From Narcine bancroftii (lineage: Eukaryota): 64,000 nucleotides of DNA. Shown here one piece after another: positions 1,861-64,000 of this stretch. Positions within the stretch are counted from its first letter, which is position 1. Each line of letters begins with the position of its first letter. Made by a program: the position numbers and the translations under genes. The notes beneath the pieces are model-generated. The model was not told where the DNA came from. It saw only the letters and a program-made list of their open reading frames with translations, and searched no databases. The stretch spans positions 85,808,001 through 85,872,000 of the forward strand of contig NC_091481.1 in the NCBI RefSeq assembly GCF_036971445.1, given 5' to 3'.

Positions 1861-1870
1861 GGGGAATAAG

Positions 1871-5400: not shown

Positions 5401-5652
<252 letters not shown>

Positions 5653-6728: not shown

Positions 6729-6857
6729 GTAAGTGTGCCAACTCACACGCAAGGAGAAAGAGTAACTTGTTGGGAATTGAGAGTAACTTGGTGATGTGTG
6801 CTAGGTGAATTATTGAGCCTCTTTCTTACTCGGAGTGACAATGCTTGTCATAACCAT

Positions 6858-10184: not shown

Positions 10185-10295
<111 letters not shown>

Positions 10296-10599
10296 TGAGT
10301 ATCAGATAGGACAGACCTTCAGCATGGAACTGTTGAGTCGGGGGCGATGCTGGTGGCATGGACGAGGTTTTCTTCTCGACTCTGTCACCAGCCCTCATTC
10401 CTTTCGGCCTTTCAGCTTCTCGACGGACATTTTAACTGTTTTTCTCACACCGCGGGTGGTGCCTGACAACTGGAAATCAAATGTAAACAAAAATTTGTTG
10501 GAAATGGTCAGGCGGCACCCGTGGAGAGAGAAACAGTGAATATATTGGGTCAAAGATCCTCGAAACTGGGAAAGTGAGGAGACAAGGTGCAGAAAAGGT

Positions 10600-11310: not shown

Positions 11311-11426
11311 CATAGCAAGCTCCTGCAGAACATTGTCTGCCTTCCTTCCCATGTTACCATACAGTGATCAAGGTGCGTGATCAGTTGTTGGGGCGCCTTT
11401 TCGCACCCTGTTGCTGTTGGGTTTGA

Positions 11427-11627
<201 letters not shown>

Positions 11628-31421: not shown

Positions 31422-31621
31422 NNNNNNNNNNNNNNNNNNNNNNNNNNNNNNNNNNNNNNNNNNNNNNNNNNNNNNNNNNNNNNNNNNNNNNNNNNNNNNN
31501 NNNNNNNNNNNNNNNNNNNNNNNNNNNNNNNNNNNNNNNNNNNNNNNNNNNNNNNNNNNNNNNNNNNNNNNNNNNNNNNNNNNNNNNNNNNNNNNNNNNN
31601 NNNNNNNNNNNNNNNNNNNNN
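31422..31621. other. Assembly gap (200 N)
   Basis: Run of N. Confidence 1.
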
Positions 31622-39819: not shown

Positions 39820-40360
39820 GGCTACTTAATCATGAAAATCACCTTAAAAATGTTCCTATCAAGTACCATTTTTTAGATATTATGTGTTTTTGTGATTTCC
39901 TGTCATCTTTTAAGTCCACTTCAAGCAGGTAAAACCATGAAGTGCAGCACGTCGTTGAAAATTCATTTTCTACATTCACACTTGGACGCCTTCCCTGCTG
40001 ATCAGTGACGAACATGATGAAAGGTTTCAGGACACTGTGACCATAGAAAAGCGGTATCAAGGCAACTGGAATCTGGCCGACTATTGTTGGACACTGACAC
40101 AAGAGGCATCAGATGCTGAGTACAAATGGAAATCAGCTGCAAACCATCTATAGGTTAGTTGAACAAATGCAATGTGTTAGTGTCATTATGCGATTAAACG
40201 TGCTAAATTCAATCAAAGTTAATTTAATGTTTCTCCAACTTCCTACGTGATATGGCAAATATGAAATTATCTTTATGTTCAGCTTGAAGTGGTCTATCAA
40301 AATCCCCCATTTCTTTTCAGGAAGCCAAACCTTCTGAGAATAAAAGTGTTGCCCATTGTT
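39820..40360 (+). mobile_element. Degraded DNA-transposon fragment (possibly Sola-like transposase C-terminus)
   Basis: Frameshifted SDEHxERF.QD...EKRYQGNWN..LADYCWTL at about 40003-40100. Superfamily assignment is from memory and uncertain. Confidence 0.45.
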
Positions 40361-40841
40361 ACTTGGAGCTGATGTGGAAAGGAGCTTAGAAACACAAATA
40401 CACACAACCGCCTAACTAATGCAGGACCCTGATGTGACAAACTTAAATATCGTGAACGTGGCTGGAATAGTCGACGAGACAGTTGCATTGTTGTAGATAA
40501 CAATTCCTTCCAATTAAGAATTGCTCTGAATCTGACAGAAAGGAGGAGTTCAGGGACGAGTGAAAGTTTAGAAGGGGTCCTGGTCTGCAGTGGCCTCTTC
40601 TCTGCTGCCACCCTCTCCCCACATTCCCAGGGTGAGGGATCCTGTTCACCAAAGGATAGTCAAGATGTCCAAGCATTTCCCTCCCCCTCCATCCCTCCCC
40701 CACCCTCACGGCAGCACGAGGAACCCACCACTATTGTTCATCGACGCCGAGACACAATCTTCACAATGTCTCTCCGTGCCTCGGACATACTGGCAGTCTT
40801 CCCCCACCCCCTAACCCAGTGGCCACCATCTTCCTCTTCCC

Positions 40842-40881
40842 TCAAGCTGCCTGGGGCTGCTTTCTCCTCATTGTGGGGCAT
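40842..40881 (-). CDS. PlGF/VEGF-like gene, predicted terminal exon (CPTMRRKQPQAA*)
   Basis: Strong acceptor ctatttcttgcttttcag|; phase 2 matches exons 5 and 6. The C..RR motif resembles VEGFA CDKPRR and PGF CGDAVPRR. Confidence 0.7.
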
Positions 40882-41019
40882 CTGAAAAGCAAGAAATAGG
40901 GAAAGAACGTCACAGAGGTCTGCAGTGGACCTTCAGCCCAACCCTGTCCCCACCAACCAAGTCGGCAACCCAAGTTAGACTTATAGCCCTTTAAACCTTC
41001 CCTCTCTGTGGCCTGAAGC

Positions 41020-41710
41020 GCCGTGTTTACAGATGGTAAGACAGTAGATGGCCTCATCAGCAACACTGTTGAGTTGGCTTACAGGGAGGTGGTTGGGAGG
41101 CTCGTAATATGGTGCGAGAACAATATCCTGAGACTTCTCACGGACAAAACAAAGATGATGATTATGGACTTCTGGAGGAACAAGGACAATCACTCTCAAT
41201 CACACATCAATGGCTCTGTCACATGGTGAGAACAAAATTCCTTGGTGTGCAGAGAAGGGACGACCCATCCTGGACCCACAAGCACCTACACTTTCTCAGG
41301 AGGTCGAGGAGGACAAGGTTACCGGCCCCCATCTTGGCCACATTTTACAGGATCACCATTGAGAGTGTCCTGTTCGGCTGCATCTCTGTGTGGGACGGGA
41401 GCTGCAAAGCATCGGACTGGACGTCAATACAGAGGATCATCAAAATGGCTGAAAAGATCACTGGGGTCTCCCTTTCCTCTGTTGGTGACATTCACTGGGA
41501 GAGTTGGTTAAATAGGGCTCAGAGAATTATAGAGGACCCTTTCCACCCAGCACACAGGACCTTTGACCCACTCCCATCAGGAAGGAGGTACAGGAGCATC
41601 AACATCAGGACGGCCAGGCTGGGGAATAGCTTCTTCCCACAGGCTGTGAGAGTGATGAACGGTATCTGAGTAAATAATTAGAAATATTTATAACTGTTTA
41701 TTTTAAATTA
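41020..41710 (+). mobile_element. Rex/Babar- or L2-like LINE 3' remnant; related copies at about 14600-14960, 31810-32020, 51790-52260, 58700-59330
   Basis: FYRITIESVLFGCISVWDG...HPAHRTFDPLPSGRRYRS...NSFFPQAVR. Confidence 0.75.
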
Positions 41711-43259
41711 TATCTGTATGTATTTATGTGATTTTTTTATGTGCCTTTGTCTCCTTTCACACAGACAAAATTAATTCTCACCTCTTCCCTTATCATATCC
41801 AATGAATGTCCTTAATTGGTCTCCCACCGGCCAGCACTGTCTCTATTCTGAGATTTGCTGTTTTTTCCTTATTCTTTGCTCATTCCTGGAGGACGGGCTC
41901 AGGCCTGAAAAGCTGTTCGTATACCTTTACCTTGTATGGACGCTGCGAGTCCGGCTGAGATCCTCCTGTGTTTTGACTACAGTCACGGTGTCTACAGGCT
42001 TTCGTGTTTCGTCCCTTTCAAAGCCGGCTTGGAAGACGCCCAGGAAGAGTATTCAGGCGTGGCGCTCCTGAAGATAAAGCACCCAACATGCTCGAGGGTC
42101 TCTGCAGCTCAGGCAGCATCCAGAGACGGCCAGAGACGGTCAATGCCTCGGCCTGAAATGCCAACTCCCTGTAGTCGGCCTTCCACGGTTACTGCCTGAC
42201 CCACTGAGTTCCTCCGGCACTTTGTGTATTTCTCCAGTGCTCATGGATCTGAAGTCTCTCCTGTTTGTTTCTGCAGTTTTGTGATCCGTTCCGCTGGCAA
42301 CATACAATCTCGCTGAGCGACTGCTTCCACGAGCACAATTTTCAGAGTCCAGTGTCTGTAATCGCTTGAGTTTGCCAATAACATTCCATAAGCCTTCCTC
42401 ATTACTCACTGTTCCAGCAAAGCACACAAAGGCCGTTCTAAGAGCTCGGTCATCTCTCACTATTTAGACAATGCTTCTTTTTTTAATTGACAAAAGGGTC
42501 AAATCCAGATTTTCCTGCATTACAGTAAAACACAAGTCTGCAGACACTGGGGTGAAGCAAAAGCATGACATTGGAGAAACTCAGCAGGTCACACAGTGTC
42601 CTTGATAGAGTAAACATAACCAATGTTTTGGGCTTGAGCAAAATGTCGGCAGGCGCCCGAACATCGATTCGGACTTGAGGCCTTCATCAAGGTGTGAGCA
42701 AAATGTCGGCAGGCACCCAGACCATTAAGTGTAGAAGTCGGCCAAAAAGTCGGATGCCAGAAATCTGGACCAGGCAAGAATTCGGACTTCTCGAAAAATC
42801 TCGTTTAAACCTTTGTGTGTGTGCATAAGTGCCACAGATGCCCAAACTCGGACGTCTGATGACATTGTGTTCATAGCTTGATTAAGGGCTCAAGACCAAA
42901 CCCTTGGTTCTGTTACTTTACCTTTACCACATTCACTGCTTGACCGGCTGAGTTTCTGCAGCTTCGTGTTTTTATTTTAATCCCATTTTCCTGTGTTCGG
43001 CCCATATCCCGTAAACCATTCCTATCCAAATGCATTTTAAAATGTTATAATTATATCCGTCCCTATTGTTTTCTCTGACAGCTCTTTCTAGACAACCACA
43101 ACCCTCTGAGTCAAAACGTTGACCCTCAGGTTCTCTTTGACTCTTTCCCCTCTCACCTTAACCCTTTCCCCTCTGGCTCTGGACACCCCCCCCCCCCCCA
43201 CAACTCTGGATAAAGGGCTGTGACCATCTGCCTTATAAATGCCTCTGAGCATTTTCCAA

Positions 43260-43628
43260 TACAGGTTAGGGTCTGCAGGCTTTCACGTTTCATCCCTTTC
43301 GAAGCCGGCTTGGAAGATGTCCTTTATCTGGACATCTAAAATCCGGAAAACTCCAAAATCCGGCAAGCGGGGAGAGAGATGGCAGCACGAGTCGGGCAGG
43401 TGAGAGACCAGCAGCGCAAGTCAGGCGGGTGAGGGGAAGAGACCGGCAGCGCGAGTCGGGCGGGCGAGGAGGAAGGGGGAAGACGGCAGCACGACTGGAA
43501 GGGGATGGGGATGCATACGGCAGCACAATTTGGGTGGGCTTAAATCTGGCTTTCCGAAATCCATAAAAATCCGAAAATCAGAACACTCTGTCCCCCAAGG
43601 GTTCCGGATAAAGGATTATGTACCTGTA
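43260..43628. mobile_element. Tc1/mariner(Tigger)-like MITE
   Basis: TA-CAGGT ... ACCTG-TA termini and subterminal CCTTTATC.GGA / TCCGGATAAAGG inverted motifs. Confidence 0.5.
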
Positions 43629-43830
43629 CAAGGCCCACCCTTTCAGAGGTACTTGACGGTAGAGGATCAATAAGCAGAAAACCTCCAGGTGACAAGGAGG
43701 CCCATCTGAATCACTCTGTAGCACAGAGAGAGGGAGGTGACCTCTCTAGATGCCACGCATAGTGGAAGAGTTGGTGGGGGGGGGGGGGTGGGGGGGTAAC
43801 CTGGTCTCAAGGAACGACCTGCACACTCAC

Positions 43831-43896
43831 TGGTTGAGCTCAGCCACCTCCTCCTGCTTGGACCTCTTCCTCGGGCCTTTCCTCTTGCCACTTCTC
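43831..43896 (-). CDS. PlGF/VEGF-like gene exon 6, basic heparin-binding-like (RSGKRKGPRKRSKQEEVAELN)
   Basis: tttcag| acceptor and |gtgagt donor, 66 nt, phase 2-2; analogous to PlGF-2 exon 6. Confidence 0.8.
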
Positions 43897-44006
43897 CTGA
43901 AAGAAGACATTCTCCTGTCAAGTCAACGGGAGGGGAAACTCCCCACTTGATGGGCCTTCCCCGAATTGCGCGGGCGTGTGGGACGGGAGGCTGAAAATTC
44001 CTTTAC

Positions 44007-44036
44007 CTGTCGCCTTTCAATCGTTTCCGCCGTGGT
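44007..44036 (-). CDS. PlGF/VEGF-like gene exon 5 (RPRRKRLKGDR)
   Basis: 30-nt exon, as in VEGFA and PGF exon 5; long pyrimidine tract, ag/gtaaag boundaries. Confidence 0.85.
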
Positions 44037-44784
44037 CTGAAACAAAGGAGAAGAGAGATTTCAGAGGAGTGGGTAAGGTGCCGTTTGGATGGGGTGGGGA
44101 GTCTGCAACCCACTAACCTACTGCCTGAGAGAGTGCTGGCACTAGAGAAAGCTGGAAGCACGTTGCTGCATCTTTGAAGGGTACTGACAGTTCACAAGGT
44201 TGTTGCCAGGATTAGAGAAGTTGTCCATTAGACATAGGAGCAGAAATAGGCCATTCAGCCCATCGAGTCTGCCTCTCCATTTATTAAGAGCTGATCCATT
44301 TTCCCACTCAGCCCCACTGCCCGGCCTCCTCCCCATAAACTTTGAGGCCCTGGCTAAGGAAGAACCCTTAAATACACTGTGAGGGGCCGGGCCTGTTCTC
44401 CTAAGTAGGAAGTGTATAAAATTGTGAGGAGCATTGATGGGGTGAAGAGAGAGTCTGATTCCTGGAGTAGGAGAATCTAAGAGATTGGGTGGACAGCCAG
44501 CAGCTTTTTCCCCGGAGTGAACACCAGAGGACATCCACTTAGGTCACGGGAAGAACGTACAAACTCCTTATAGACAGCTTGGGGTTCAAACCCCAGTCCC
44601 AACTGCTGTGCTGTAACAGCACAGCACTAACCGTTTTACACTATGGTTCTGTGGTTAAATGGGACTAACGTTGTGGGGCACAGTCAGACAACCTGGGCCT
44701 GTTCCCCTTCTGTAGGCCTTGATGACAAATCCCCAAACAAGGTCACACCACCAACACCCCAAGCCACTTCGACCCCACACTTAC

Positions 44785-44864
44785 CGGCATTCACAGCTGC
44801 TGTGTTCAGTGAAAATCATCTCCTCCTGCTTTGTCACCTGCTGCAAGGGCTTTAACTTAATGAC
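44785..44864 (-). CDS. PlGF/VEGF-like gene exon 4 (VIKLKPLQQVTKQEEMIFTEHSSCECR)
   Basis: F.EH..CEC motif; ccag| acceptor and |gtaagt donor; 80 nt. Confidence 0.92.
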
Positions 44865-44999
44865 CTGGAAAAGATTGGATTGATGAAGATTGTTTAAAAT
44901 AATGGGAGTCACTGAAGCCACTCATTCAGCACCAGCTTCCAAATTCAAGGCCAAGGTTAGTGTCACGTCACTCTGCCTATTGAGATGATAGGTAGATCG

Positions 45000-45610
45000 T
45001 TCCATCTATTTAAATCATCTTAATTTTATTAAAGAATGGAACATAATTTAACATACAGATTGTCTAAATTTCTATCAATTCTAATACCTAATTATTTAAT
45101 CGGGTGATATGTCCACTTAAATTGAACTACACGTTTACAACTGTCATAATCTCCTTCTACTAGTGGCATATCTTCACTTTTATCCCAATTAATTTTATAA
45201 CCAGATATTTCCCCATGATCTTGTAACTTTTTATATAAAGAAATTAAAGAATTTTTGGGATGTTATATAAATTAATATATCATCTGCAAACAAATTAATT
45301 TTATACTCCACCTCATTAACTTTAATTCCTTTAACACTACAATCTTGCCTTATTGATTGTACCAATCAATAAAACTAAAACAAACCATGCAGGAGATAAA
45401 GGACAACCTTATCCAGCCGATCAAGTTAATGAAAAAGAAGAAGAAAGTTGTCTATTAGTAACCACTCTCGCCAAAGGGTTTCCATATAAAGCTTTAATCC
45501 AATTCAGAAATATTGACCCAAATTGAAATTTTAAAAAATTTTAAATAAATAATTCCATTCTAATCTGTCAAAAGCCTTTTCAGCATCTAATGATAAAACT
45601 ATATAACAAG
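45000..45610 (-). mobile_element. L1/Tx1 ORF2 RT fragment
   Basis: AT-rich; reverse translation gives LSLDAEKAFDRLEW and KINLFADD. Confidence 0.8.
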
Positions 45611-46319
45611 GGTAATGAAGATCATTGGAGTGAGCTTTGTTCAGGAGCCTGATGGATGTGGGAAAGAAACTGTCTTTGAACCTTTGTTCAAACACTCTTG
45701 AACCTTAAATCACTCAATGACAAGCCTAAAGACAGGGACATGTCCCCACTGAGACCTCCACTCCCACAGGGGCCTGAGGAAATTCTGCATGCCCTTGGCA
45801 TCCCCCCATCAACCTCTGCCCTATCAAGGGTATCCAGTCAGGATTCACCAACGCCCGCTATGGGAAGCTGCTCCCGCCAAGGTTGCCAGATGCTGCAGAG
45901 AATTCTGAATGCAGCACAATCTCCCTTCTCATGCCCCAGAAAAGCAGCCAGCAAACTAAAGGGCTCATCCCATCCTGGTCCCTCTCCTTCCTCTCTCCAC
46001 TGCCACATCCGACATTTTCTTTCCTGCAGATATCTGGCTCCGGAACAAACCTTCTAGGGGCAAAATAACATTGCTCTTACTCTATTAAACTCCAGTCACA
46101 ACAGGCGCACCGCAAGGATGCGTGCTCAGCCCACTGCTTAACTCACCGTACACCCATCATTGTGAGGCCAGGCACAATTCTATTTTGCCGTTGACACCAC
46201 GGCTGTGAGCAGAATCACAGACGGAAAGTGTACAGGAGGGCGAGAGATCAGCTCACTGCAGTATCTGCACAGGTTTCAGCCCCGTGGCCCGAGTACTTCG
46301 GCTGCACATTGTCCCTCAC

Positions 46320-46516
46320 CTGTATGGTGACGTTGTACATTTCCTGGGCTGTGCAATGCAGCTTCTCATCTCCGCAGCAGCCGGCGCAGCGCAGCAGAGG
46401 GACGCAGGAGGGCTTGAAGATGTACTCAGACTCGCTTGGGTACTCTCGGGCCACGTCCACCAGCATCTCGATGGTCCGACAGTAACTCCGGTTCCAAACT
46501 TCCTCGAACGGGACCA
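46320..46516 (-). CDS. PlGF/VEGF-like gene exon 3 (VEGF/PDGF homology domain)
   Basis: VVPFEEVWNRSYCRTIEMLVDVAREYPSESEYIFKPSCVPLLRCAGCCGDEKLHCTAQEMYNVTIQ. 197 nt, as in VEGFA and PGF exon 3. PSCV..RC.GCC cystine-knot signature; the N-terminal part is closest to PlGF (VVPFQEVWGRSYCR). Confidence 0.95.
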
Positions 46517-48454
46517 CTGGGAAACACAAACACCTGCCAGTCACTCAGCCGGCATCCAGGAGTGGGTCATAATGGGCTGGCTCAGCCATTCCCACACCCT
46601 CGAGCGTCATAGGTCGCTGCACCACGGCTTGAGGGCTCGTGGCCTTTGGTGTCTGGTATCTGGTCCTTTCATTTGACTCCCAATTTGACCCAATGTTCTT
46701 ACATACAACAGGGAAACTGACCCTTCGGCCTCTCCATTCGCACTCGCCCCGTAACAATCCCGTTTTGTTCACCCCATCAACTCCCCCCCCACCCCCCGCA
46801 AAAGTTCTACAACTCACAAGGGACAGTATTCAGCAGGCAACCAACCTACCTGCATGACTTTGGGAACTGGGGCAGCCAGCAGAGGTGAGGGTGGGGGGGA
46901 AATCCCACGAGGATGCAGGGAGATTGGTCGGGAGTAGTGGTTAGTGCAAATGCATTACAGTACCAGCGATCGGGACCAGGATCCGAATCCTGCGCTGTCT
47001 GTAAGGAGTTTGCATCTTCTCCTTGTGGGTTTTCCCCGGGGGGGGGTTCCAGTTTCTTCCCACTGTTCAAAAAGTACCGGGATTTCATTTCAGCACACGA
47101 ACCTGTGCCGCCCAATTAACCTACAACTCATGGTAGGTTTTGAACGGTGGGAGGAAACCAGAGCCTGTGGGGAAAACCCACGCAGACATGGGGAGATTGA
47201 ACAAACTCCTTATAGACAGCGTGGGATTCAAACCCCGGTCCCAATTACTGGTGCTGTAACAGCGATGCATTAACCTCTATGATAACTGTGCCGGTAATTG
47301 GGTGGCAGAGGCTCGTGGCCCAAAAAGGCCTGTTACTGCACTGTGTGTCTAAGTTTAAAAATTTGAAATTTAAAAATGTCAGGATCTCTGAGGCTAGGAA
47401 GCAGTAACTCTACCCACAGCACCTCTGAGGCTTGAAATAATTTAGTGTTCAGAGTTCATGTCCACTTCCCTAAAGAGGTTTATAATATTGGTTAGGATTA
47501 AAACAAAACCGTTAAACCTCTGTCTCACATCCATCATCTGGGTTGTAATAACGAATGATTTCCTGGCTGGTTTCCCAGCTCTAGTTTAGACAATGTTTAC
47601 AAACATATTAAGAGCTGCATCCATGTTCTGGCTCCTGGCAGACCAGCATCTCCAATCCAAGTGTCCCTAACCAAGTCACTTTCACTCCAAAATGACAACG
47701 AGCCATCTCATGTTCACCCAAGAGATCTGTTCTCCTGAACCATGAACATCTCCGTTTTAAACCAACCATCTGTTGGGTTTTCGTACCAAAGATAGGAGAG
47801 GATTAAAAACTAGAGGACATGGGTTAAGAGTGAAAAGGGGAAAAGCATAATAGGAGAATTAAGGGACATGGGGGGAGGGGGGGGGAAAGGCAGATGGGTG
47901 GAGATGAGCCAATCATCAGATCAGCCAATGAATGGTGTAGCAGGTTCGATGGGCTGAATGGCTGACTCCTGCTCCTGTTTCTGATGTTCTTAAAGGTTAA
48001 TGGGAACTTTAGGGGGAACTTCACACAGAGAGAGTGAGAGTGGAGCGAGCTGCCTTCTGACGAGGTAAATGTGGGCTCAGTTTTAACATTTAAGAAGAAT
48101 TTGGTTATGTACATGGATGGGAGGAGTATGGAGGGCTATGGACTGGTAGAATAATAGTTCAGCAAACACTAGAAGGGCTGAATGGCATGTTTCTGTGCTG
48201 TAGTGCTCTGTGGTTCTATTTAGAGCAGAGAGGGAGAGAAGAGGCTGAAAGAGGAAATGAGGGGAGGGAGGGGGGTGAAGGTGATGGAGTGGGGAGGAGG
48301 GAAAAGGTGGAGGTGGGGAGGGAGGCGAGAGAATGTGAGATGTAGGAGATGAGAGGGGAGAGGGTGAAGAGGGGTAGGAAGTGAGCATGGTATGAGATGA
48401 GCAGGTAGGTGGTGGGAGGGAGAGGGGTAAGGGGGAGAGAATGGGGAAGGGAGT

Positions 48455-48732
48455 GGGGTGAGAGGGAGAGATGGGGTGAGAGGGAGAGATGGGGTGAGAG
48501 GGAGAGATGGGGTGAGAGGGAGAGATGGGGTGAGAGGGAGAGATGGGGTGAGAGGGAGAGATGGGGTGAGAGGGAGAGATGGGGTGAGAGGGAGAGATGG
48601 GGTGAGAGGGAGAGATGGGGTGAGAGGGAGAGATGGGGTGAGAGGGAGAGATGGGGTGAGAGGGAGAGATGGGGTGAGAGGGAGAGATGGGGTGAGAGGG
48701 AGAGATGGGGTGAGAGGGAGAGATGGGGTGAG
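48455..48732. repeat. 18-bp tandem repeat (GGGGTGAGAGGGAGAGAT, about 15 copies)
   Basis: Directly visible, nearly perfect. Confidence 0.95.
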
Positions 48733-48942
48733 GGGGAGAAGGAAGGGGAAAGGGAGTGAGAGGGTAAGGGGAAAGAGAAGGGGTGAGGGGGAGAGAGTGG
48801 GAGATGGGGAGGGTGTATCTGTATGTTTGGAACAGAGAGACGCTGCTTCTGGACACACAATGGTAAATATTCGACCCACGGCACGTCTCTCTGCCCTGAA
48901 GTGTACCGCCTGTTGAGTGTGAATGGAAGGCTAGGTACTCAC

Positions 48943-48964
48943 CTCCAGGGGCCTGGCTGGATAT
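48943..48964 (-). CDS. PlGF/VEGF-like gene exon 2 micro-exon (ISSQAPG + G)
   Basis: Strong acceptor ttttcttctttcttccag| and donor |gtgagt; 22 nt, phase 0 to 1, joins exon 3 in frame. Confidence 0.7.
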
Positions 48965-49913
48965 CTGGAAGAAAGAAGAAAATAAAATTAAGAGCTTTTT
49001 ATTCAACGAAGAGAAGCACCTTCCCCTAGCTTGGTCTCTCAGTTCTCAGCCACAGCCAAATGCATCTTGGGTAAAAACCAGCAAACGTGGCCAGTGAGGA
49101 TGCTCCCCTTCAACATCGTGGTAACAGGAGAGGAAGTTCCTCACCAGTCACCGGGCTCTTCTCCCACCAGCGTCACCCACTGGGTTCTACCTCAGGAGTT
49201 CAAGGCTTCACCCTCTCCCTGTAGCTGATCATTTGGATCTCCAGCCAGATGGAATGGTGGCAGCGTCGATCTGAGCACGGTGAGGGTATGGATTGGCACC
49301 AATCGGGGGTCGCACCTCGTGCCGAGTCTGTCCAGTGTACTATGTCAGCAGGGGAGGGGAGGGGGGGTCTATCTATCCGGGCGTTCACACTGAGATTGAC
49401 TCAGGGAAGGTGGTGGTAGCGGTGAGTTGGAGGAGATGGGGAGAGGGAACTAGACCAGACTAGGACAACCCCAGGATCGAAGCGACAGGGAGAGAGTGGA
49501 CCGGAATGGACCAGAACTGCTCCAGGACCAGAACAACTCCAGGACCAGAGTGACATGGAGAGAGAAGACCAAACTGGATCGGGACAATTCCAGGACTGGA
49601 GCGACAGGGGGAGAGGGGAGGAGTATGGAGGGCTATGGACTGGTAGAGTAATAGTTCAGCAAACACTAGAAGGGTCCGAACGGCATGTTTCTGTGCTGTA
49701 GTGCTCTGTGGTTCTATTTAGAGCAGAGAAGGAGAGAAGAGGCTGAAAGAGAGATGGAGTAAGAGGAAATGAGGGGAGGGAGGGGGTTGAAGGTAATGGA
49801 GTGGGGAGGAGGGAAAAGGTGGAGGAGGGGAGAGAGTGGGGAGGGAGAGGGGAGAACGAGATGTAGGAGATGGGAGGGGAGAGGGTGGAGGGGTAGGAAA
49901 TGAGCAGGGTAGG

Positions 49914-51200
49914 GGGAGAGGGGACTGGACCAGATTGGGATAGTTCTGGGACTGGAGCGACAGGGGGAGAGGGGACTGGACCAGATCGGGTTAGATCTGG
50001 GACCGGAGCGACAGGGGGAGAGGGGACTGGACCAGATCGGGTTAGTTCTGGGACCGGAGCGACAAGGGGAGAGGGGACTGGACCAGATCGGGCTAGTTCT
50101 GGGACTGGAGCGACAGGGGGAGAGGGGACTGGACCGGATCGGGCTAGTTCTGGGACTGGAGCGACAGGGGGAGAGGGGACTGGACCGGATCGGGCTAGTT
50201 CTGGGACCGGAGCGACAGGGGGAGAGGGGACTGGACCAGATCGGGTTAGTTCTGGGACCGGAGCGACAGGGGAAGAGGGGACTGGACCAGATCGGGTTAG
50301 TTCTGGGACCGGAGCGACAAGGGGAGAGGGGACTGGACCAGATCGGGTTAGTTCTGGGACTGGAGCGACAGGGGGAGAGGGGACTGGACCGGATCGGGCT
50401 AGTTCTGGGACTGGAGCGACAGGGGGAGAGGGGACTGGACCGGATCGGGCTAGTTCTGGGACCGGAGCGACAGGGGGAGAGGGGACTGGACCAGATCGGG
50501 TTAGTTCTGGGACCGGAGCGACAGGGGGAGAGGGGACTGGACCAGATCGGGCTAGTTCTAGGACTGGAGCGACAGGGGGAGAGGGGACTGGACCAGATCG
50601 GGCTAGTTCTGGGACTGGAGCGACAGGGGGAGAGGGGACTGGACCGGATCGGGCTAGTTCTGGGACCGGAGCGACAGGGGGAGAGGGGACTGGACCAGAT
50701 CGGGTTAGTTCTGGGACCGGAGCGACAAGGGGAGAGGGGACAGGACCAGATCGGGCTAGTTCTGGGACTGGAGCGACAGGGGGAGAGGGGACTGGACCAG
50801 ATCGGGCTAGTTCTGGGACTGGAGCGACAGGGGGAGAGGGGACAGGACCGGATCGGGCTAGTTCTGGGACCGGAGCGACAAGGGGTGAGGGGACTGGACC
50901 AGATCGGGTTAGTTCTGGGACCGGAGCGACAAGGGGAGAGGGGACAGGACCAGATCGGGCTAGTTCTGGGACTGGAGCGACAGGGGGAGAGGGGACTGGA
51001 CCAGATCGGGCTAGTTCTGGGACTGGAGCGACAGGGGGAGAGGGGACTGGACCGGATCGGGCTAGTTCTGGGACCGGAACGACAGGGGGAGAGGGGACTG
51101 GACCAGATCGGGTTAGTTCTGGGACCGGAGCGACAAGGGGAGAGGGGACTGGACCAGATTGGGCTAGTTCTGAGACTGGAGCGACAGGGGGAGAGGGGAC
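49914..51200. repeat. 51-bp tandem minisatellite (about 25 units)
   Basis: Unit GGGACTGGACCAGATCGGGCTAGTTCTGGGACCGGAGCGACAGGGGGAGAG; gives the 17-aa periodic ORFs on both strands. Confidence 0.95.
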
Positions 51201-54200
51201 TGTTCTGGGAATGAGACCCAAGTGACGGTCATGTTGGATTCCATGTAGATTTACATTTTAAATTTAATTTGCTTTTTAGGTTTGTAAATGCAAACGTTCA
51301 AGTTAAACGCCACCAATGTCACGATTAATCACGTTACTTTTTTTTAGAGACACAGCATTGCAACAGGTCCCTCCTGCCCTTGAGCCCGCACCACTTGACC
51401 TATGAACCCTGTATGTGTGTGGAATGGTGGAGGAGGGAGCACACAGAACTAAACCCAATGCTCCATCTAGTGTAACAGAGGGCAGTTCAGAGTGAATGCA
51501 GTTCTGGACCAAAGACTTTGGAGCTCCTTCCAGAAATTACACGAGTAAACCAGCTGGGTTCTCGTGTGATTTCAGTAGTTTAACGACTTCTGGCACCAGC
51601 GTACAGTTCCAGCTGTGATACATTAACAACATTAATTCTCCAGCAGTTGTAGTTGGGACTTACAAATGTTCTTCCAAATCATTAAGCCAAGCCCCTGGTT
51701 ATTAGTCGACTAATGTGTTCATCACAGTTTGCTGATTAAAGAGCTGTCAAAGAACTAAAGGCAGTACACAAGTGATGGGGAGATTCAGCAGGCCACACAG
51801 TATGTGTAAGAAGTACCTGTCGTGGACACACAGCATCTCCTCACTTGTCGGGAAGGCGCACCAGCGGCTGCACTTCCTGAGAAGACTGAAGCGGCCAAAG
51901 CTACCTGCCACCATCAGTGTCAACCTTCTACAGGAGCTCTGTCGAGAGCGTCCTGGCCGACTGCATCTCAGTGTGAGCACGGACACTACAAAGAAATGGA
52001 TCGGAGGTCAATCCACCAGACCATCAGAGCGGCAGAGAGGATCACTGGAATCTCCCTACCCCACCCCCCTCCCCTCCAATCTACGTGATCTACTGGGATC
52101 GTTGCTGAAGAGGGCACGCAAAAATCATTGCGGACCCCTTCCACCCCGCACACAGCATCTTTCAACTGCTCCGGTCGGGGAAGAGATCCAGGAGGATGAG
52201 AGCCAGCACTACCTGGCTGAGGATCAGCTTCTTCCCACAGGCAGTGAGAACGCTGAACGACTGCTAAAACAACTCACCGTGATTTTACTATTTATTAAGA
52301 ATATTTATGCTAATATGTGTACATATAATGAGGACATGGGTTAAGGGTGAAAAGGGAAAAGTTTAGGGGGAACCGGAGGAGGAAATTCCTTACACACTGA
52401 ATGGTGGGGGTGTGGAACGAGCTGCCAGCTGAAGTGGTGAATGCGGGCTCAATTTTAACATGTAAGAGGAATTTGGACAGGTACATGGATGGGGGGGCTA
52501 TGGTCTGGGTACAGGTCAGTGGGACTGGGCAGAATAACAGTTGGGCATAGACTAGAAGGGCTGAAGGGCCTGTTTCTGTGCTGTTATGCTCTATGGTTTG
52601 TATGTGTTATGTCTGTACACGTGTTCTGGAGAATGCTGTTTTTTGGGTTTCACTGGTACAACTTGAACTTGACTAGACCCCCAGTCGCTGCAGATTTTCT
52701 TGTTTAACATCAAAGAATTAAAACCTGCTTTTGCTCAAATCCACATCTTGGATCACTCAACTTAACTAAATGTTTTTTGGCACAATACATCGAGGTTAGG
52801 AGTGCCTGGGAACCACAATGGATTTTTATTTTAATTGTGAAGAGTTTCTATCCAATGGAATCTGCTGGAATTTCCCACACAAGCTGATTGTTCACTGGGC
52901 AAAGCTTTCCTAGTTGTTTATTCCCCTTGCCCTTCTCTCATGTTTAAAAGACCTGAGTTATGGGGAACTCAACTGAAATAGACAAGATCCTGAATTTAAA
53001 TTTAGTTTTAAAATTTAGATGTACTGCACTGTAACAGGCCCTTCTGGCCCCCAAGTGCGTGCCACCCAATGAACCTAAAACCCCTGGTATGTTTTGAAGG
53101 GTGGGAGGAAACCGGAGCCCCCGAGGAAAACCCACGCAGACATGGTGAGAACACACCAACGCCTTACAGACAGTGCAGGATTCGAAGCCAGGTTGCTGGC
53201 CCAGTAACAGCGTGGCACTGGCCGCTACGCTAGCCCTTTATCTCACAAAGGAAGCCATTCAGCCCATCGAGTCATGCCAGCTCGCAGAGAAACCCCACCT
53301 CCCCATTTATTTCCATGTCACCTACGCCCATACACCACACAAGAGGAAAAATATGATTGGGTTGGAGAAGGTGCAGAGGAGACTCACCAGGATGTGGCCC
53401 GGTAAGGTGGGTGGGGGGAGGGTTTCAGTTCGATGGAGAGATGGGGTTTTTTTCTTCAAGAGCAGCAGAGGTTTCACAGCCTCTCAGCGGCTCTGAAAGA
53501 ACCCCCTTTTACATTGTTTTCTCTCATACCGTAAGGGACGACACTAATGGCGACTTACGGCAGGTAAAAGTTATATTGTGTATGTTACATGTTTAATGTA
53601 TTATTACGTGAAAGGAACTTACTCAACAAACCCACCCCTACCTCCTACCAATAACCCTCCATTTTCCTCGCATCCGTGTGCCTGTCAAAGAGTCTTTTGA
53701 ATTCATTCAGGGAAAATTTCACTGGACAGGAGAATCAAAATAAAATGGAAATTAACTATAATTTTAACCTCATAGTTCTAGCGTACGGGCTCCAAATTTG
53801 CAGGAATAAAAAATATTTACCCCTCAAATTGTAAGTATTTTTTTTCTAATGGAATACAACTTTGAATCTCAGCACGCCATCCCTCTAATGTTACAGGTTT
53901 CCATGTTACAGTGATACATTTCCTTGCTTTTACTAAAGCTAATTTAAATTTTAATTTAGAATCCGACAACGATGATTTAGGAGGAACACTTTCAAGATTT
54001 CCTAACAATAATTCAGGATTTAACAGAAACAAATCACTCCAGTGTTTCGTTGCAAAGATTTTCTAACAGAGAGCAGCCGATGATTTTTCTGACACAAGTC
54101 TCAGAGATTAGACATCAAGGGTTCCACTGGGATCCGACAGTGACTCAGGATAATCCCAGGACAGCATGTAGATTCATCGTCTCAATCTCCTTCCTGTGTC

Positions 54201-54699
54201 TGTGTTCCATAAACAGCCCCTAGATACGGCAGCGACTCAACATCTTTCTAAAAGTTCCTCGCGTCCACCTCTGGTGGGGAGAAGACGAGGGGAGCACAGA
54301 GTCTCGCCATGCTCGGAGATAACATGGGGTTAAAGATTGCTCTTTTCTAGATTCCCAATGGGACATGGGATCAGTTAAATTCTGTGGCTGGGTTTGATTG
54401 TTTCTGTGGATTTTTTGAAAAATTTGCAACATTTGCAAAAAAAAAAACCTCCAATACAAAGGACAAAATGTTCTTGGCAGCAAAACAAAGCAAGTTCTCT
54501 CCTGATGCCAGATCTTTGCTGTGGTTTTGGTGACGCCTGTGTCTAAGGGGGGAAAAGGAGGGGGGAGATAGGGATGGAAATCCTGTTGAGGGCTTTGGAG
54601 GGGGTGGGGAGATTCTATGGGGTGGAGGTGAGGTGAGAGCAAGGGGAGGGGAGGGTGAGCCAAGTGAGTGGATGTCACAATCACACAAGATCTAGCAGC

Positions 54700-55935
54700 A
54701 AAAGTAGGCCCATCGAGTCTGTTCCGCCATTCTAATCATGAACTGATCCATCCTCCCACTCAGCCCCACTCCCTAGCCTTCTCCCCGTAACCTTTGATAC
54801 CCTGACTAATCAAATACCTGTCAATCTCTGCCTTAAATACATCCAACGACCTCAACAGGTTCCACAGACTCACGACCCTCTGGCTAATGAAATATTTACA
54901 CATTTCTGTTTTAAATCAACGCCCTTTTACCCTGAAGTTGTGCCCCCTTGTTCTAGACTCCCCGACCATGGGAAACATCCTGGCCACATCTACTCTGTCC
55001 AGGTCTTTCAGGATTCGAAATGCCTCGATGAGGTTCCCCCTCGTCCTTCTGTATCCCAACGGAACAGAAGGATGGGCAAGTAAGTTTGTGGATGGCATGA
55101 AGGTCGGAGGAGTTGTCATAGATTACAGGAGGATATAGACAGGATGCAGAGTTGGGCAGAAAAGTGGTAGTGTGAGTTGATGCATTTTGCAAAGTCAAAC
55201 CAGACGGCTGAGTATAGGGTTAATGGTCAGATACTTAAGAGTGTGAATGAACCTTGGGGTCCAAATCCATACATTCCTCAAGGTCACTGCACAGGTTGAG
55301 AGGATAGTTAAGAAGGCCTATGGGATGCTGGGCTTCATTAATAGAGGGATTGAGTTCAGGAGTTGAAAGGTCATGTTGCACCTACAAATCTCTGGTGAGA
55401 CCACACTTGGATTATTGTGTTCAGTTCTGGACCTCATTACAGGAAGGATGTGGAAGCTATGGAGAGGGGCCAGGGGAGATTGACCAGGACGATTCCTGGA
55501 TTGGAAAATAAGTCCTACAGGCAAGGCTAGCAGAGCCGGAACTTTTCTCTCTGGAGCGAAGATGACGAGAGGAGACTTGATCGAGGTCGACAAGATTCTG
55601 AGAGGTGCAGACAGAGTGGACAGCCAGCGCCTGTTTCCCAGGGCAGGATCAGTAAACACCAGAGGACATCTGTACAAAAGGAAGGGAGACAAGTTTGCAG
55701 GAGATGTCAGGGGTAAGGTTTTTTTTGTTTTTTTTTATATACACAGAGAGTTGTGGGTGCCTCGAATGCCTTGCCAGGGGTGGTGCTGGAGGCTGGAACA
55801 ACTGGGGAATTTAAGAGACTCTTAGACACAAGGATGGAGGGTTACGGGGTAGGGAGGGTTTAGATTATTTTTGGTAGGAATATATGGGCCAGCTCAACAT
55901 GGAGGGCCGAAGGGCCTGTACTGTCGTGTTATATA
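54700..55935. mobile_element. Two head-to-head CR1 LINE remnants (about 54700-55060 on -, about 55070-55935 on +)
   Basis: TRGHNFRVKG on -; YKSLVRPHLDYCVQFW...RGDLIEVDKILRG on +. Confidence 0.8.
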
Positions 55936-58900
55936 ACAGTCCCATCTGGCCAGGGACAGCAGGTCAGGCAGCTCTCTCTCTGTGCTGCCAATCACAGGGA
56001 GTTTCACTTGTTCTGCAGGCTACTTTTGACAGATTGCTGCCTTCGGTTGGACTGATGTTAACACAATTTCCACAGTTGTTGCTGCAGTTCAATAAAACCA
56101 CCTGGGGTGGGCAGATAGACCAACCTCCCCTTCCAGACCTGGCAACTCCCAGGAGACAAGAGCAGGAGTTGGGGAAGCTGGAATTCCGCAGAGGTTTAAA
56201 CAAAGGAACTATAATTCTGAGCCGCTCTCTCAAGATTCACCACGGTCGGCCTAGTGGTCAGCGCTCAACTGTTACAGCGCCAACGATCGGGAACGGGGTT
56301 CGAATCCCGCGCTGTCTGCATGGAGTTTGTACTCCTCACCTTTTTGTTCAGATGCCTGTCGACATTTTCCCACACCTTGATGAAGGGCTCAGGCCTGAAA
56401 CATTGGTTATGAACCTTCATCTTTGCTATGTAAAGGACCTGCTCAGTTTCTCCAGCGTCGTGAAGCACGGTGTCTGCAGACTGTCATATGTTCTCCCCGT
56501 GTCTGCATGGGTTTTCTCTGGGCGCTCACGTTTCCTCCCACCATTCAAAGAAAATACAGTAGTGTAATCAAGTGTAATTGGGTGGCATGGGCTCATGTGC
56601 CGAAAGGACCTGTTATCGAGCTGTGTGTCTAAATATTTTTTTTAAATTAAGAACATTTGGGGTTAAACACACAGGTAGCACACAGCAGCTCAGTGGTGCC
56701 TCACAGCCCCAGAGTCCTGGGTTTTACCCTAAGCTCCGGCGCTCTCCGCGTGCAGAGTTTGCACGATCTCTGTCCCCTTCCTGGGGTGCGTGGTTCCCTC
56801 CCAGATCCGGGACATTATGGCAGGTTAACAGGTTAAGTGATCCCTTAGTGGAGAGGAGAGGCAAAAGTGGGTGAATGAGAGAATAAGTTGCAGGGTTGGG
56901 GGCAATAAAAGGAAGGGGAATGGGATTACTGCGTTAGGAGCCAGCATGGGACTGATGGGCTGAATGGCCTTCCATGTCATTTACAAGACAGCCAGTATCC
57001 AAGAGGGTGACAATAACAGGCCTCAAAGGCCTATGGCCCCAACCTCTACCATTATGAAGTGTTTCGAGCATGTGGTGATGGAACGCATCAAAGCTCACCT
57101 CCCAGAAATGCTAGACCATTTCCATTTGTCTACAGAAGAAACTGTTCCACAGGTGACGCTGTAGCCCTGTCACTCCACTCCCCCCTGACCCTCCTGGAGA
57201 ACGATGCCCCATACGCCAGGTTGCTGTTCATTGACTTCATCTCAGTGTTCCCCAGAAATGGATGGAGAAGCTGCTTCCGCTGGGGCTCAACACCCTTCAC
57301 TGTAACTGGACTTCCTGATGGAAAGACCACAGTCTGTCCAGGTCAGTAGCAGAACATCGAGCACTGGCCAACCTCAGGGCTGTGTGCTCTGTTCACACTG
57401 TTGACCTGTACAACAAACCTGACTTGAAGTATAACTGTTTAACATGATTCCCTTTCGAGCTCAGAAACTTGAGTCTGAAATAAAACAGACTGCACAGCAC
57501 AGACTCTTCAGCCCACAATCACACACCCCTAACTCAAGGGCGACATTCCTTGTCCAACATCTACACAGGACCGTCAAGGAACCATCTCTCAACCAGACCA
57601 AACATCCAACCAGATCACACTACATCTCCCACAGCACTCTTTCAACTAACCCCAGTTGCTTCCTTTAGCTCCGCAACTAAAATCGGATGGTCTGTGCCGC
57701 TGGGTTGCGACAATCTCGATGTTACAACAGGGCAGTGGGGTGACGGACCCAGGCATCCAGAGGCCTTTACTAATACAGGTGGCCCATGTTACGGGGTGAT
57801 GTATTCCTGGAAAGTGGCCCATATCATAATATGTCCTGTGTCGACAAAAAATGGCATTTAAATTTAGAGGCACAGCACGGGAACAGGCCCTTCCAGCCCA
57901 TGAGCCCGTGCCCTCCAAATACACCAATTAATCTGCAAAACCCATACAATTATGGAAGGTGGGAAGAAACCAGAGCCCCCGGGTAAACCCCACGCAGACA
58001 CAGGGAAAACTCCTTACGGACAGCACGGGATTCGAGCCCAGGTCGCCGGTGCTGTAAAAGGGAGGCGTTGTAACAGCGTGGCACTAACCGTGCTGCCCAT
58101 ACACTCTCCTTTTGGCCTCTCCTTCTTACTGCCTTTTTACTCTAAGTTGACCTGAAACGTTGACTGACCATCGGACGCTGCCTGACCTGCTGAGTTCAGC
58201 CTGCGGGCAGCCTGTCGAACCGAACTAGCAGAAGGATCTTCCTTCCTATGGTGGAGGACCCTGCCGAGGTTTCCCTTCCCAGTGTGCCTTCCAACAGTCC
58301 TCCAGCGCAGCATTGCCAGTCAAGGAGCTGGGTGGGAGGAGACCATTTGTCCCCTCCAGTCTGAGGGCTACCACCTGGTCCCCTTCTCATTTCCCCCAAA
58401 GCTTTCTGGGGATTGATCCCATGCAGGAGCTATGGTTTCCTCTCTTCTTTGGTATGGTGGTCCAATGCGAGTTCCGTCCTGTGGTCCTTCAAGTGGCCCA
58501 TCTGGTGTCCAGTGTCCGACGTTCAACAGGAATTAGACTGGAGGTCCAAGACCAGGAAAGAGGGGAAGAGAACGAATCATTGGTGCAAGAAAACCACGCT
58601 GGCAAAACCCACCAAAGTATGGCTTAAATTGTCTGGTATGGTATCTGCAAGGCATCAGACCAGAGGGTAATAAAGAGGATCATCAAAATGGCCGAGAATG
58701 GTCAATGGGGTCTTCTTTTCTTCTTTTGGCCACATGTCCAGCCGAGATAAGGGAGATGATTGTGGACATCAGGACGATGAATGTTGACCTCTCTCTACTA
58801 CACATCAATGGCTCTGTCTTGGAGAGCACAAAGTCCACTGATGTGCACATGAAAGACGACCAGTCCTGGACCCACAACATCTCCTCATTCATCAGCAGTG

Positions 58901-61900
58901 CCTACACTTCCTCAGGAGTTCGAGGAGGGCAAGGCTACCGGCCCCCATCTAACATTTTACAGGAACACCACTGGGAGGGTCCTGTCAGGCTGCATCTCTG
59001 TGTGGACGGGAGCTACAAAGATCAGACTGGAAGTCAATACTAGAGGGTCATAGAATGGCCCAGAAGATCACTGGTGTCTCCCTTTCCTCTGTTGACAACA
59101 TTCACCATGGGGGCATTGCTTAAATAGGGCTCAGAGAATTATTGAGGACCCTTTCCATCCAGCACACGACCTTTGACCCACTACCATCAGGAAGGAGGTA
59201 CAGGAGGCCAGGCTGGGGAATAACTTCTTCCCACAAGTTGTGAGATTGATGAACAATGTCCTGTAACCGATAAATCAGCCCAAAATATTTACATATGTTT
59301 ATTTTAAATTATATCTTTATGTATAAATATGATTATTATGTGATGTGTATTGTGCATGGACCACAGTTTGGAGAAACGCTGTTTCAACTATTTAAATTTA
59401 GATGTCCATCATGGTAACAGCCCCTTTCGGCCCCGTGCCACTCAATTGACCTAAAACCCCTGGTACGTTTCAAATGGCGGGAGGAAACCAGAGCCCCCGG
59501 GGAAAACCCACACTGACACGGGGAGAACGTACAAACTCCTTACAAGACAGTGCAGGATTCAAACCCCAGTTCCGGTCGCTAGTGCCGTAACAGTGTTGCC
59601 AGGCCATCCATGCTGCCCCAATATTTGTATGTACAGACAGATGATAATGAACTTGAAAAGAGGGGCATTGATGTGCCCAGACAACTCATTTCCCTGGTGC
59701 AGCAGGGAAACTGGCTGTGAAGAAGAGGTGCCGACGCCCCCTTCATAGCCCAGACGTCACCACTGACTGTTATCCAGCCCAAGTGAATGGCAGTCCAGCC
59801 TGGGCCACTCGAGACGGCAGGAATGGCAAACTGTGGAAGGGGTATGAGCAAGGGCAGCACAGTGGCTCACCTGCCACCTCAAAGCAGCTCATATGGAATT
59901 TGCATGCTGGGTATAGATATAAAGAAATGACAGGTCCTTCATCCCATCATGTTGTGCTGACCTATGTAAACCTACTCCACAATAATCTAACTCCTCCCTA
60001 CCTCACATTCTACTTTTCTTACATCCACGTGCCTGTCTAAGAGTTCTTTTTAAATGTCCCTATTGTACCAGCCTCCACTACCACCCCCGGCAACGCATTC
60101 CAGGCCCCCACCACTCTCTGTGTAAAAAACTTACCCCTAAACTTTCCTCTATTCACTTTGTACAGATGTCCTCTGGTGTTTGCTACTCCCACTTTGATAA
60201 AAAGCTGCTGGCCGTCCATCCGATCTAAGCTCCTCATAACATTGTCGATTAAGTCACCCTTCCATCCTTTGTCTCTCCATTGGGAAAAGCTTGCTCCACA
60301 AGACATGTTCTCCCATCAGGGCCTCACCCTGGTAAACCTCCACCTGGCCCCTCTCCAAAGCTTCTACGTCCATCTTGTAATGAGGCGACCAAGAGCAGTC
60401 TCACCAGAGCTTCCCCCTGCGGCTCTGGAACTCGCTGAGACTGTGTTGGTGCTTGCGTTTCTACCCCGCATCCCAGAGACATGGGTTAACAGCTGCTCCT
60501 GGGATGCAGGTGAGCGGCGGTAGGTGTGGGGGGGGGGGGGGAGAGAGGGGTGGGCTGGGGGTGGAGCTGCTGGGGACGCAGGGAGAATCTCGTGGCGATG
60601 GGTGGTCAGTGTGAACTCGATGAGCTGAACGGCCTGTTTCCTTGCTGCAAGAGCAGTTTCCAGACTCATGCACGAGATGAAATGAAAGGAAGTTATTGGG
60701 AAAATATTTTGTTTGGATTGGAGGCCGCGACAGAACCAAGACCCTTAGAAAGGAGCAGAGGGAGCCAGATATGTGGGAGTACAACTGAGCTGTTAACCAA
60801 AAGCATATGTGACTACAAGTTTTATTAATGGGGAATCCCAAAGGATGGGGAAGATGCCAAACATAGCATGGGAAACCTTGGAATGATCAACAAACATGGA
60901 GACCAGCTTGTCAGTGAAGCAAAGAGGGCATTGTGTTTGATGTCAGAATAATTGTGGAGGATGGGGAGGGTGTGGTTGGGGGAGCAGGGGGAAATCTCGT
61001 GATCCTCTCCTTGATCCGAGGAGGACGCAGCTGATGAGAAACTACCCACTGGCGTCAGTAGTGGAGGGAATGCGGACCGCAATGGGGGACACCATCAGAA
61101 GGGGTGACACCAAAATGAGTCTATTGAATTTTTTGTGCAATGTTTCAGTAGAAATTTATTACTATTTATAAAAGTATCCCTGTCGTTCATTATAACAAAA
61201 AAAAAACATTTCTTGTAAGCCCAGTTGACATGATCCAATAGACTTACAAGGTTAAAAACTGATGCTCATTTACTTTTTGAACCATCTAATATGCTCCAGT
61301 CAGAGCTGTCGTTATTACCCAATAACAATGATGCTTCGAATCACATGGTTTTGTCTGCACAAGCAAGCGCTGTTGTTTTTGTTGCTGCTGTAATTTAAAG
61401 GTGTAATTTAAATTATGATCGGTGTTTATCTCACTACCATTGCCATTACATTCAGTGATCTACGGGGATTACAATTTACAAGTAATATTAGTACAAAGAA
61501 AATTACTAAGGATTCTGTATGGTCTGGTACAGGAGGAGGTCCATGTTAGGGGACCTCCCAACCTGCCCCAGCGATGGAGATCACAGGCTGTGGGGCTGCT
61601 GGAGGCCCACTCATGGGCACCAGGTTCTGGGGAGAAGATAGAGGTGGGTAAGTTGTTCCCATTGGTGAGGAAGACCAGAACCAGGGGACATAGCCTCAAG
61701 GTCCAGAGGAGTAGATTGAGACGGAGATGAGGAGGAACTGCTTTTCCCAGAGGGTGGGGAATCTGTGGAATTTGCTGCCCATTGAAGCAGTGGAGGTGAC
61801 CTCAGTTAATAGATTTAAGACAAGGTTGGGTAGATTTTTACAAAGTTGGGGAATTAAGGAACATGGGGAAAAGGCAGGTGGGTGGAGATGAGCCGATCAC

Positions 61901-63629: not shown

Positions 63630-63935
63630 TCTGTTTTATTTTCAGGGATATTATTAGTGGGCTGAGGAACCGACAGGCTGAGGTTGGGCTGCTGGAGACC
63701 GGCTCGTGGGAACCAGGTGTCGGAGAGGGGGCTGAGGGCAAGAAGGGCTCCTGAAGGGGCCTTGGGCGCTGAAGGCTTCCTGATCGTATGGGAGGTTCGG
63801 ATCTGGAGCTCGGCGGCCGATGGATCGATCAGGGGTCTGTGCGTCTGCAGGAATTGCTGGAGCGAATCCACGGACACTCAGTGACTCTGAATGGATTCTT
63901 TTTTGCTTCTCTTTCTCTCATGTGGTAAGGGGCTC
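63630..63935 (+). mobile_element. Unclassified dispersed repeat; copies at about 900-1160, 5680-5930 and 53470-53610
   Basis: Shared core CACGGACACTCAGTGACTCT...CTTTTGCTTCTCTTTCTCTGACTGTAAGGGG. Confidence 0.6.
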
Positions 63936-64000
63936 TGGTGTCACTAGGGGGCTACGGACCGCACCAGGTGACTCCATCAGAGAGGGTGACACCAGAATAA

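Follow-up and report, generated by a model that had tools for sequence, protein, structure and literature searches.

A VEGF gene beside FOSB in the ray Narcine bancroftii: a probable fourth ohnolog of the VEGFA, VEGFB and PGF genes and probable root lineage of VEGF-F

Introduction

The described relatives closest to the gene reported here are PGF (PlGF), VEGFA, and VEGF-F, together with the venom VEGFs of vipers. We analyzed a 64,000-nucleotide stretch of the genome of the electric ray Narcine bancroftii (contig NC_091481.1, G000:C27:85808001-85872000; "the window" below), which carries a gene of the VEGF (vascular endothelial growth factor) family on its minus strand. VEGF-F has been attributed to a duplication in lepidosaurs, most likely of VEGFA, and the range published for it is lepidosaurs only (Rauniyar 2023, PMC10328876). 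The same paper names the Podarcis protein XP_028597744.1 VEGF-F, reports that sharks have PlGF and that amphibians lack it, and prefers limited duplications as the source of PlGF and VEGF-B. Venom genes including VEGF have been proposed in general terms to be one of four copies from the two rounds of vertebrate genome duplication (2R), with no locus named in the text available (PMC6062510).

A literature search over titles and the starts of abstracts, with most subscription journals outside it, returned no report placing the gene at FOSB as a fourth ohnolog and, within the same scope, none calling shark PlGF a VEGF-F ortholog. A 2021 study by Almeida reportedly derived VEGF-F by co-option of a PGF-like gene, not of VEGF-A, and its synteny figures are said possibly to cover this locus already. 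The idea of a fourth ohnolog tied to VEGF-F is partly anticipated in print, and its novelty is below what the first-pass annotation of this locus, made from the sequence alone, had assumed.

We conclude, at a probability of roughly 80%, that the ray gene is the fourth ohnolog of the VEGFA/VEGFB/PGF quartet, the FOSB-segment sister of PGF and the root lineage of VEGF-F. The two vertebrate genome duplications would have yielded VEGFA, VEGFB, PGF, and a fourth gene (the C27-type gene, after the ray contig) on a FOSB segment of the human 19q13 type. The ray gene would be the ortholog of the "PGF-like" or "VEGF-F" gene of coelacanth, salamanders, caecilians, turtles, tuatara, lizards, and python, and vipers probably converted this lineage into venom VEGF. 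This ray would have kept the FOSB-segment gene, with true PGF lost together with CIPC from the FOS segment. This conclusion conflicts with the lepidosaur origin of VEGF-F and with the PlGF reported for sharks (PMC10328876).

Comparison with described VEGF genes

PGF forms the sister clade in the free trees. Like the ray gene, it has a seven-exon layout without a cysteine-rich heparin-binding domain and a neighbor of the CIPC family, whereas the ray gene lies by FOSB and not by FOS and EIF2B2, has a shorter N-terminus and a VEGFA-like loop 1, and carries one extra residue in loop 3. VEGFA shares with the ray gene the eight-cysteine knot and the loop-1 motif, and orthologs of the ray gene are often labelled "VEGF-A-like"; VEGFA differs in its cysteine-rich exon, and the ray has its own VEGFA on contig C15. 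The non-viper VEGF-F and "PGF-like" proteins (Python, Podarcis XP_028597744.1, turtles, caecilians, coelacanth) form one clade with the ray gene, share its loop-3 insertion and basic exon-5 motif, and are usually encoded on small chromosomes. Their tails differ, being PGF-like in the ray (basic exon 6 and a short, cysteine-containing end) and proline-rich or acidic in reptile VEGF-F.

Gene structure and product

The first-pass annotation had read six in-frame exons of 22, 197, 80, 30, 66, and 40 nt, eight cystine-knot cysteines, and no VEGFA-type cysteine-rich exon 7. All of this was borne out. The gene is on the minus strand, all internal junctions are GT-AG, and the last exon encodes one additional cysteine. 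The parts of the gene are as follows (window coordinates unless stated).

G000:C27:85883800-85883886 (extrapolated 75886-75800), minus strand: exon 1, 87 nt, ATG and putative signal peptide; tblastn with ray orthologs, GT donor, loose end
48965..64000, minus strand: part of intron 1 within the window; exon 1 is beyond the window end
48943..48964, minus strand: exon 2, 22 nt; present in the loose end at 46518
46320..46516, minus strand: exon 3, 197 nt, start of the VEGF homology domain, six cysteines; Pfam, PDB, spliced joint
44785..44864, minus strand: exon 4, 80 nt, loop 3 with a one-residue insertion, last two knot cysteines; spliced joints
44007..44036, minus strand: exon 5, 30 nt, basic; spliced joints, conserved from sharks to lizards
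43831..43896, minus strand: exon 6, 66 nt, basic, putatively heparin-binding; spliced joints, tblastn with ray orthologs
40842..40881, minus strand: last coding exon, 40 nt including the stop; spliced joint to exon 6
40231..40841, minus strand: probable 3' untranslated region, ATTAAA at 40228; high-depth contigs ending at 40231-40305

Splicing was read from contigs of four sequencing runs, all from one study, none recorded as RNA, and classed as RNA by a tool's guess only. In all four runs, contigs omitted precisely the four introns that separate exons 3 to 7, with joints at 46320/44864, 44785/44036, 44007/43896, and 43831/40881 (CT..AC on the plus strand). Exon 6 is spliced straight to the last exon, which leaves the contig there without a cysteine-rich exon, and a cysteine-rich scan of the intron found no VEGF-like exon. 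An 84-nt exon 6 using the in-frame acceptor 43914, our first reading, was dropped, as the joints listed use the 66-nt form. A loose end at 46518, seen in at least two of the four runs, reads exon 2 and then the end of exon 1. Exon 1, which the first-pass annotation had left to be found, was located with ray orthologs about 12 kb past the window end; no credible candidate for it was found inside the window.

Exon 3 encodes a PDGF/VEGF domain (Pfam, E 1.2e-17); in the PDB it hits PlGF at E 1.4e-28 and VEGFA at E 2.8e-24. The product is 173 aa long, with a hydrophobic N-terminus, an eight-cysteine knot, and a basic tail. The hydrophobic stretch of exon 1 is conserved in rays and, judged by eye, is a putative signal peptide. 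Database model P0002, identical over exon 3, has instead a coding exon at 55671-55516 and no signal peptide; 55516-55671 (minus strand) is a repeat fragment with many copies nearby that stands in for the true signal-peptide exon. For the 351-aa database protein, AlphaFold gave a poor model (pLDDT 48), which was not used. Orthologs are already in the databases under mixed labels (VEGF-A-like, PlGF-like, FosB-like, venom toxin). The VEGF gene is real, spliced, and conserved across cartilaginous fishes.

Phylogeny and shared characters

In a tree of 65 chosen rows and 108 columns, the ray gene fell inside a 24-row clade (support 81/93) comprising chimaera, rays, and sharks, followed by coelacanth, axolotl, caecilians, turtles, tuatara, lizards, and python. 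Branching within it broadly followed the species tree. PGF formed a separate clade without any chondrichthyan row (98/96; 92/91 in a pruned tree of 38 rows). In the pruned tree, PGF plus the ray-gene clade were separated from VEGFA plus VEGFB at 100/100. The ray-gene clade itself reached 98/92 there, a value obtained after 27 of the 65 rows, long-branched or redundant and picked once the first tree was known, had been dropped. If the clade holds, the duplication is older than the split between sharks and bony vertebrates. The first-pass annotation had left a possible relation to reptilian VEGF-F as a question. For non-viper VEGF-F the trees give an answer: the python and lizard proteins lie inside the clade, and Podarcis XP_028597744.1 belongs to the same 90% cluster as the Lacerta row of the tree.

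The spacing between the sixth and seventh cysteines gave a second character. A spacing of 34, which marks the one-residue loop-3 insertion, was found in 8/8 chondrichthyan rows, 15/16 bony-vertebrate rows of the clade, and 2/2 viper rows, and elsewhere in 3/16 PGF, 0/12 VEGFA, and 0/5 VEGFB rows. Eight columns unite the chondrichthyans with the bony-vertebrate clade and three unite them with PGF.

PGF and the C27-type gene occur on different contigs in all eight species checked (sizes of the two contigs in Mb: Latimeria 69/19, Ambystoma 676/1517, Dermochelys 131/17, Emys 158/22, Gopherus flavomarginatus 163/26, Pangshura 145/19, Chelonoidis 156/63, Hemicordylus 459/39). Because both coexist in these species, the bony-vertebrate gene is a true paralog of PGF. 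A tandem pair in coelacanth, suggested by near-consecutive accession numbers, was rejected since the contigs differ (69.2 versus 18.6 Mb). Against the statement that amphibians lack PlGF (PMC10328876), the salamander proteins P0047 and P0263 (Ambystoma and Pleurodeles, with Lissotriton sharing a cluster) fall inside the clade of tetrapod PGF (100/98).

Four FOS segments and the empty PGF slot

Searching the ray genome with exon 3 gave 12 matches among 15 candidates, three of which belong to the VEGFA subfamily: the C27 gene, VEGFA on C15, and VEGFB on C17. With Polypterus PGF as the query (nine matches among 19 candidates), no further VEGFA-subfamily gene appeared. The first-pass annotation would have yielded to a gene nested firmly within PGF in a genome with no other PGF; the second of these is what was found.

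FOS-family genes (four matches among six candidates) lie on C27, C17, C15, and C5, at 20 kb from the C27 VEGF gene, 0.72 Mb from VEGFB, and 6.4 Mb from VEGFA. Reticulon genes lie on C27, C17, and C5, with a fourth on C9. TMEM63 genes are found on C5 and C15; the C15 copies are two family members in opposite orientation at 242.07 and 242.16 Mb, 0.62 Mb from VEGFA. The paralog names of these neighbors are our assumption. Paralogous neighbors are thus spread across four segments, as a 2R quartet would have them, with the FOS family on all four.

The block on C5 holds FOS, two bZIP neighbors, an IF-2B gene (12.333-12.343 Mb), a DHHC gene (12.357 Mb), and a TMEM63 gene. In the human gene order, PGF faces EIF2B2 and CIPC precedes ZDHHC22-TMEM63C; the slot expected for PGF-CIPC on C5 is therefore at most 13 kb. 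That slot, C5:12343500-12356000 between the IF-2B and DHHC genes, is gap-free and empty. A search of 400 kb of gap-free C5 sequence turned up neither a VEGF nor a CiPC match (best hidden Markov model E 1.1). Of the unmasked C5 open reading frames, 89 of 272 were run against Pfam, and the C5 sequence used leaves out 12.094-12.330 Mb. Acylphosphatase, also searched for, gave no marker of the FOS block. PGF and CIPC have apparently been deleted together in this ray. A PGF would be expected by EIF2B2 in the FOS block; the ray gene lies beside FOSB.

Neighborhood of the gene on C27

Along C27 the order is a YIF1-family gene, an ACTMAP-family gene, SNRPA, MIA, a CiPC-domain gene, an assembly gap, the VEGF gene, FOSB, a calpain gene, and a reticulon gene (RTN2-like). 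Families were assigned from Pfam and the name FOSB from a Mobula label. We presume the other paralog names, those of SNRPA and MIA among them, and all human map positions. The features within the window are as follows.

4565..11627 (approximate), plus strand: SNRPA-like gene with two RRMs; Pfam
17152..22534 (approximate), plus strand: MIA-like gene with an SH3 domain; exons read, SH3_2 E 3.5e-7
28342..29121, minus strand: main coding exon of a CiPC-domain (CIPC-like) gene that lies downstream of the VEGF gene; Pfam PF15800, E 3.2e-48
31422..31621: 200-N assembly gap between the CIPC-like and VEGF genes; N run

FOSB lies 20 kb and the reticulon gene 145 kb upstream of the VEGF gene, and the sequence from 31622 as far as the reticulon gene is free of N. 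The linkage of the VEGF gene to 19q13-type genes is therefore independent of the gap at 31422, and a mis-join there, which the first-pass annotation had feared, is moot. Its proposal of a 19q13-segment sister of PGF from whole-genome duplication is supported, on better evidence than the SNRPA-MIA linkage it had used. The calpain gene that separates FOSB from the reticulon gene is a classical one, at C27:85.98-86.01 Mb on the minus strand.

The CiPC-domain gene between MIA and the VEGF gene had been missed before. It is the only match over the cut-off in the genome (one of three matches, 10 candidates). Its protein is 30% identical to the Polypterus CIPC that adjoins PGF, and it may be the CIPC ohnolog and not CIPC itself. 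A search for its 5' exons across the gap found none. In the ESM Atlas, the ray and Polypterus proteins drew an identical set of three CiPC clusters, so CIPC paralogs could not be told apart there. FOSB is fused in frame to the VEGF gene in models of two Mobula species (P0003, P0419-P0421, P0427, P0429); the cause is either transcription that reads through FOSB or an annotation error that recurs. PGF is fused with a CiPC protein in a Polypterus database model, and gar PGF carries the UniRef name "CLOCK-interacting pacemaker a". The Mobula and Polypterus fusions are independent evidence of adjacency, and because of them we regard VEGF-CIPC as an ancestral pair.

Viper venom VEGF-F

Viper venom VEGF (vammin, VR-1) resembles the ray gene in its loop-3 insertion, present in 2/2 pitviper rows, and differs in its very long branch. 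The two pitviper rows had branches of 0.9-1.0 and were placed nowhere firmly. Constraining vipers with lizards was 1.53 log-likelihood (lnL) units better with 65 rows and 2.06 worse with 42 rows, and a VEGFA origin of the viper rows was not rejected (p 0.108 and 0.237). In Bothrops insularis, VEGF-F shares microchromosome mi-7 with the cluster of serine proteases and with a Kunitz gene (PMC12758475 Table S1), and in Bothrops it is restricted to the venom gland (PMC12758475). For the ray gene there is no sign of a venom role. The protease cluster and Kunitz gene presumably fit 19q13 by homology, and the Bothrops gene would then share a 19q13-like location with the ray locus. From the indel, the loop-3 likeness, and the mi-7 location, the venom VEGF of vipers probably derives from this lineage.

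Weighing the origin of the gene

On which side the ray gene falls, PGF or its twin, is less certain than the paralogy in bony vertebrates, and was decided by synteny and the indel. Several points weigh against placing it with the twin. The approximately unbiased (AU) test does not reject a clade of the chondrichthyan gene with PGF (p 0.505 with 65 rows, 0.387 with 38), and forcing the chondrichthyan rows onto PGF costs 0.37 lnL (65 rows) or 3.6 lnL (38 rows). The free trees that the first-pass annotation had called for put the gene outside PGF; by the AU test the PGF-ortholog tree still stands. The higher clade support depends on rows chosen with the first tree in view. When the viper rows were added (42 rows), support for the clade was 54/91 and vipers fell by VEGFA/VEGFB (58/100), with a long-branch warning. 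VEGFA formed no clean clade apart from VEGFB. Adjacency to FOSB was read in the ray and in Mobula models, not directly in bony vertebrates. Finally, C5 has neither PGF nor CIPC, and C27 carries a VEGF-CIPC pair; this is a pattern that a move, too, would account for.

Such a move would make the ray gene a true PGF ortholog, its PGF-CIPC pair having moved into the FOSB segment in cartilaginous fishes or having taken the place of its homeolog there by exchange, with the bony VEGF-F a separate paralog. The absence of another PGF, the sole CiPC gene next to the ray gene, the C5 slot empty of both, the AU values (0.39-0.51), the best PDB match to PlGF, and the shark PlGF of Rauniyar 2023 (PMC10328876) all agree with this. 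We nevertheless consider it improbable, since both free trees prefer the other grouping, the loop insertion is common to the bony clade, the columns stand at eight against three, the pair would have to land at the ohnologous position by FOSB, and the C27 CIPC is just 30% identical to the Polypterus CIPC by PGF. Still less likely is a real paralog of PGF made by segmental or single-gene duplication before the jawed-vertebrate split and not by whole-genome duplication. It would suit the limited duplications preferred for PlGF and VEGF-B (Rauniyar 2023, PMC10328876), and the four cyclostome rows of the 65-row tree leave the order of events without resolution; against it, the FOS family lies on all four VEGF or empty-slot contigs, reticulon on three, and TMEM63 on two.

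A fourth 2R ohnolog beside FOSB is the origin we prefer. Its widest form has somewhat better than even odds: VEGF-F would be the complete fourth ohnolog, of jawed-vertebrate age; every cartilaginous-fish "PlGF" would be this gene, true PGF having been deleted with CIPC; and mammals, birds, and ray-finned fishes would have lost the opposite twin. Absence from mammals, as claimed earlier, stands in part: no mammal-labelled member occurred among the proteins fetched in a search that was not exhaustive, and to our knowledge the human gene set lacks this VEGF gene.

Function and significance

By analogy with its family, the protein would be a secreted, disulfide-linked homodimer that dimerizes VEGF receptors, with contacts through helix 1 and loops 1-3 (epitopes as in PMC8625919). 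VEGFR1 is the most probable receptor, and the protein likely binds it, because PGF and VEGFB do. VEGFR2 binding is plausible, if tentative, because the protein keeps a VEGFA-like loop 1 and basic loop-3 residues. Pitviper VEGF-F prefers VEGFR-1 (PMC13030222) and vammin and VR-1 are VEGFR-2-specific (PMC8625919); the lineage would therefore be capable of either. The basic tail would bind heparan sulfate and retain the protein there. By the usual rule, neuropilin binding requires a C-terminal arginine. The last residue of the ray protein is not arginine, and the protein would have to be cleaved at a basic site before it could bind neuropilin. In this animal, the protein would likely take a PlGF-like vascular role.

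If the fourth-ohnolog origin is true, whole-genome duplication gave the VEGF family four ohnologs, in place of three genes with limited duplications, and PGF and its twin were lost reciprocally. The origin of VEGF-F would shift from lepidosaurs back to the jawed-vertebrate ancestor, and sharks and rays would show the pre-venom function of the ligand co-opted by vipers. The original function of VEGF-F, an open question in PMC10328876, would become testable in skate, catshark, axolotl, and turtle. Annotation is also corrected, both in the mixed ortholog labels and in the model of this species without a signal peptide.

Additional observations

Purine-rich tandem arrays were seen by eye at 1870-4130, 48440-48740 (units of about 17 bp), and 49930-51200 (about 40 bp), in or beside genes. 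On C5, 12.441-12.444 Mb (plus strand) holds a long-terminal-repeat retroelement-type remnant whose matches to zinc knuckle, reverse transcriptase, RNase H, and integrase lie in separate frames. Two exons that we take to be PDGFB-like lie on different contigs (C27:68999629 and C8:362820215), and one presumably PDGFA-like exon lies on C24.

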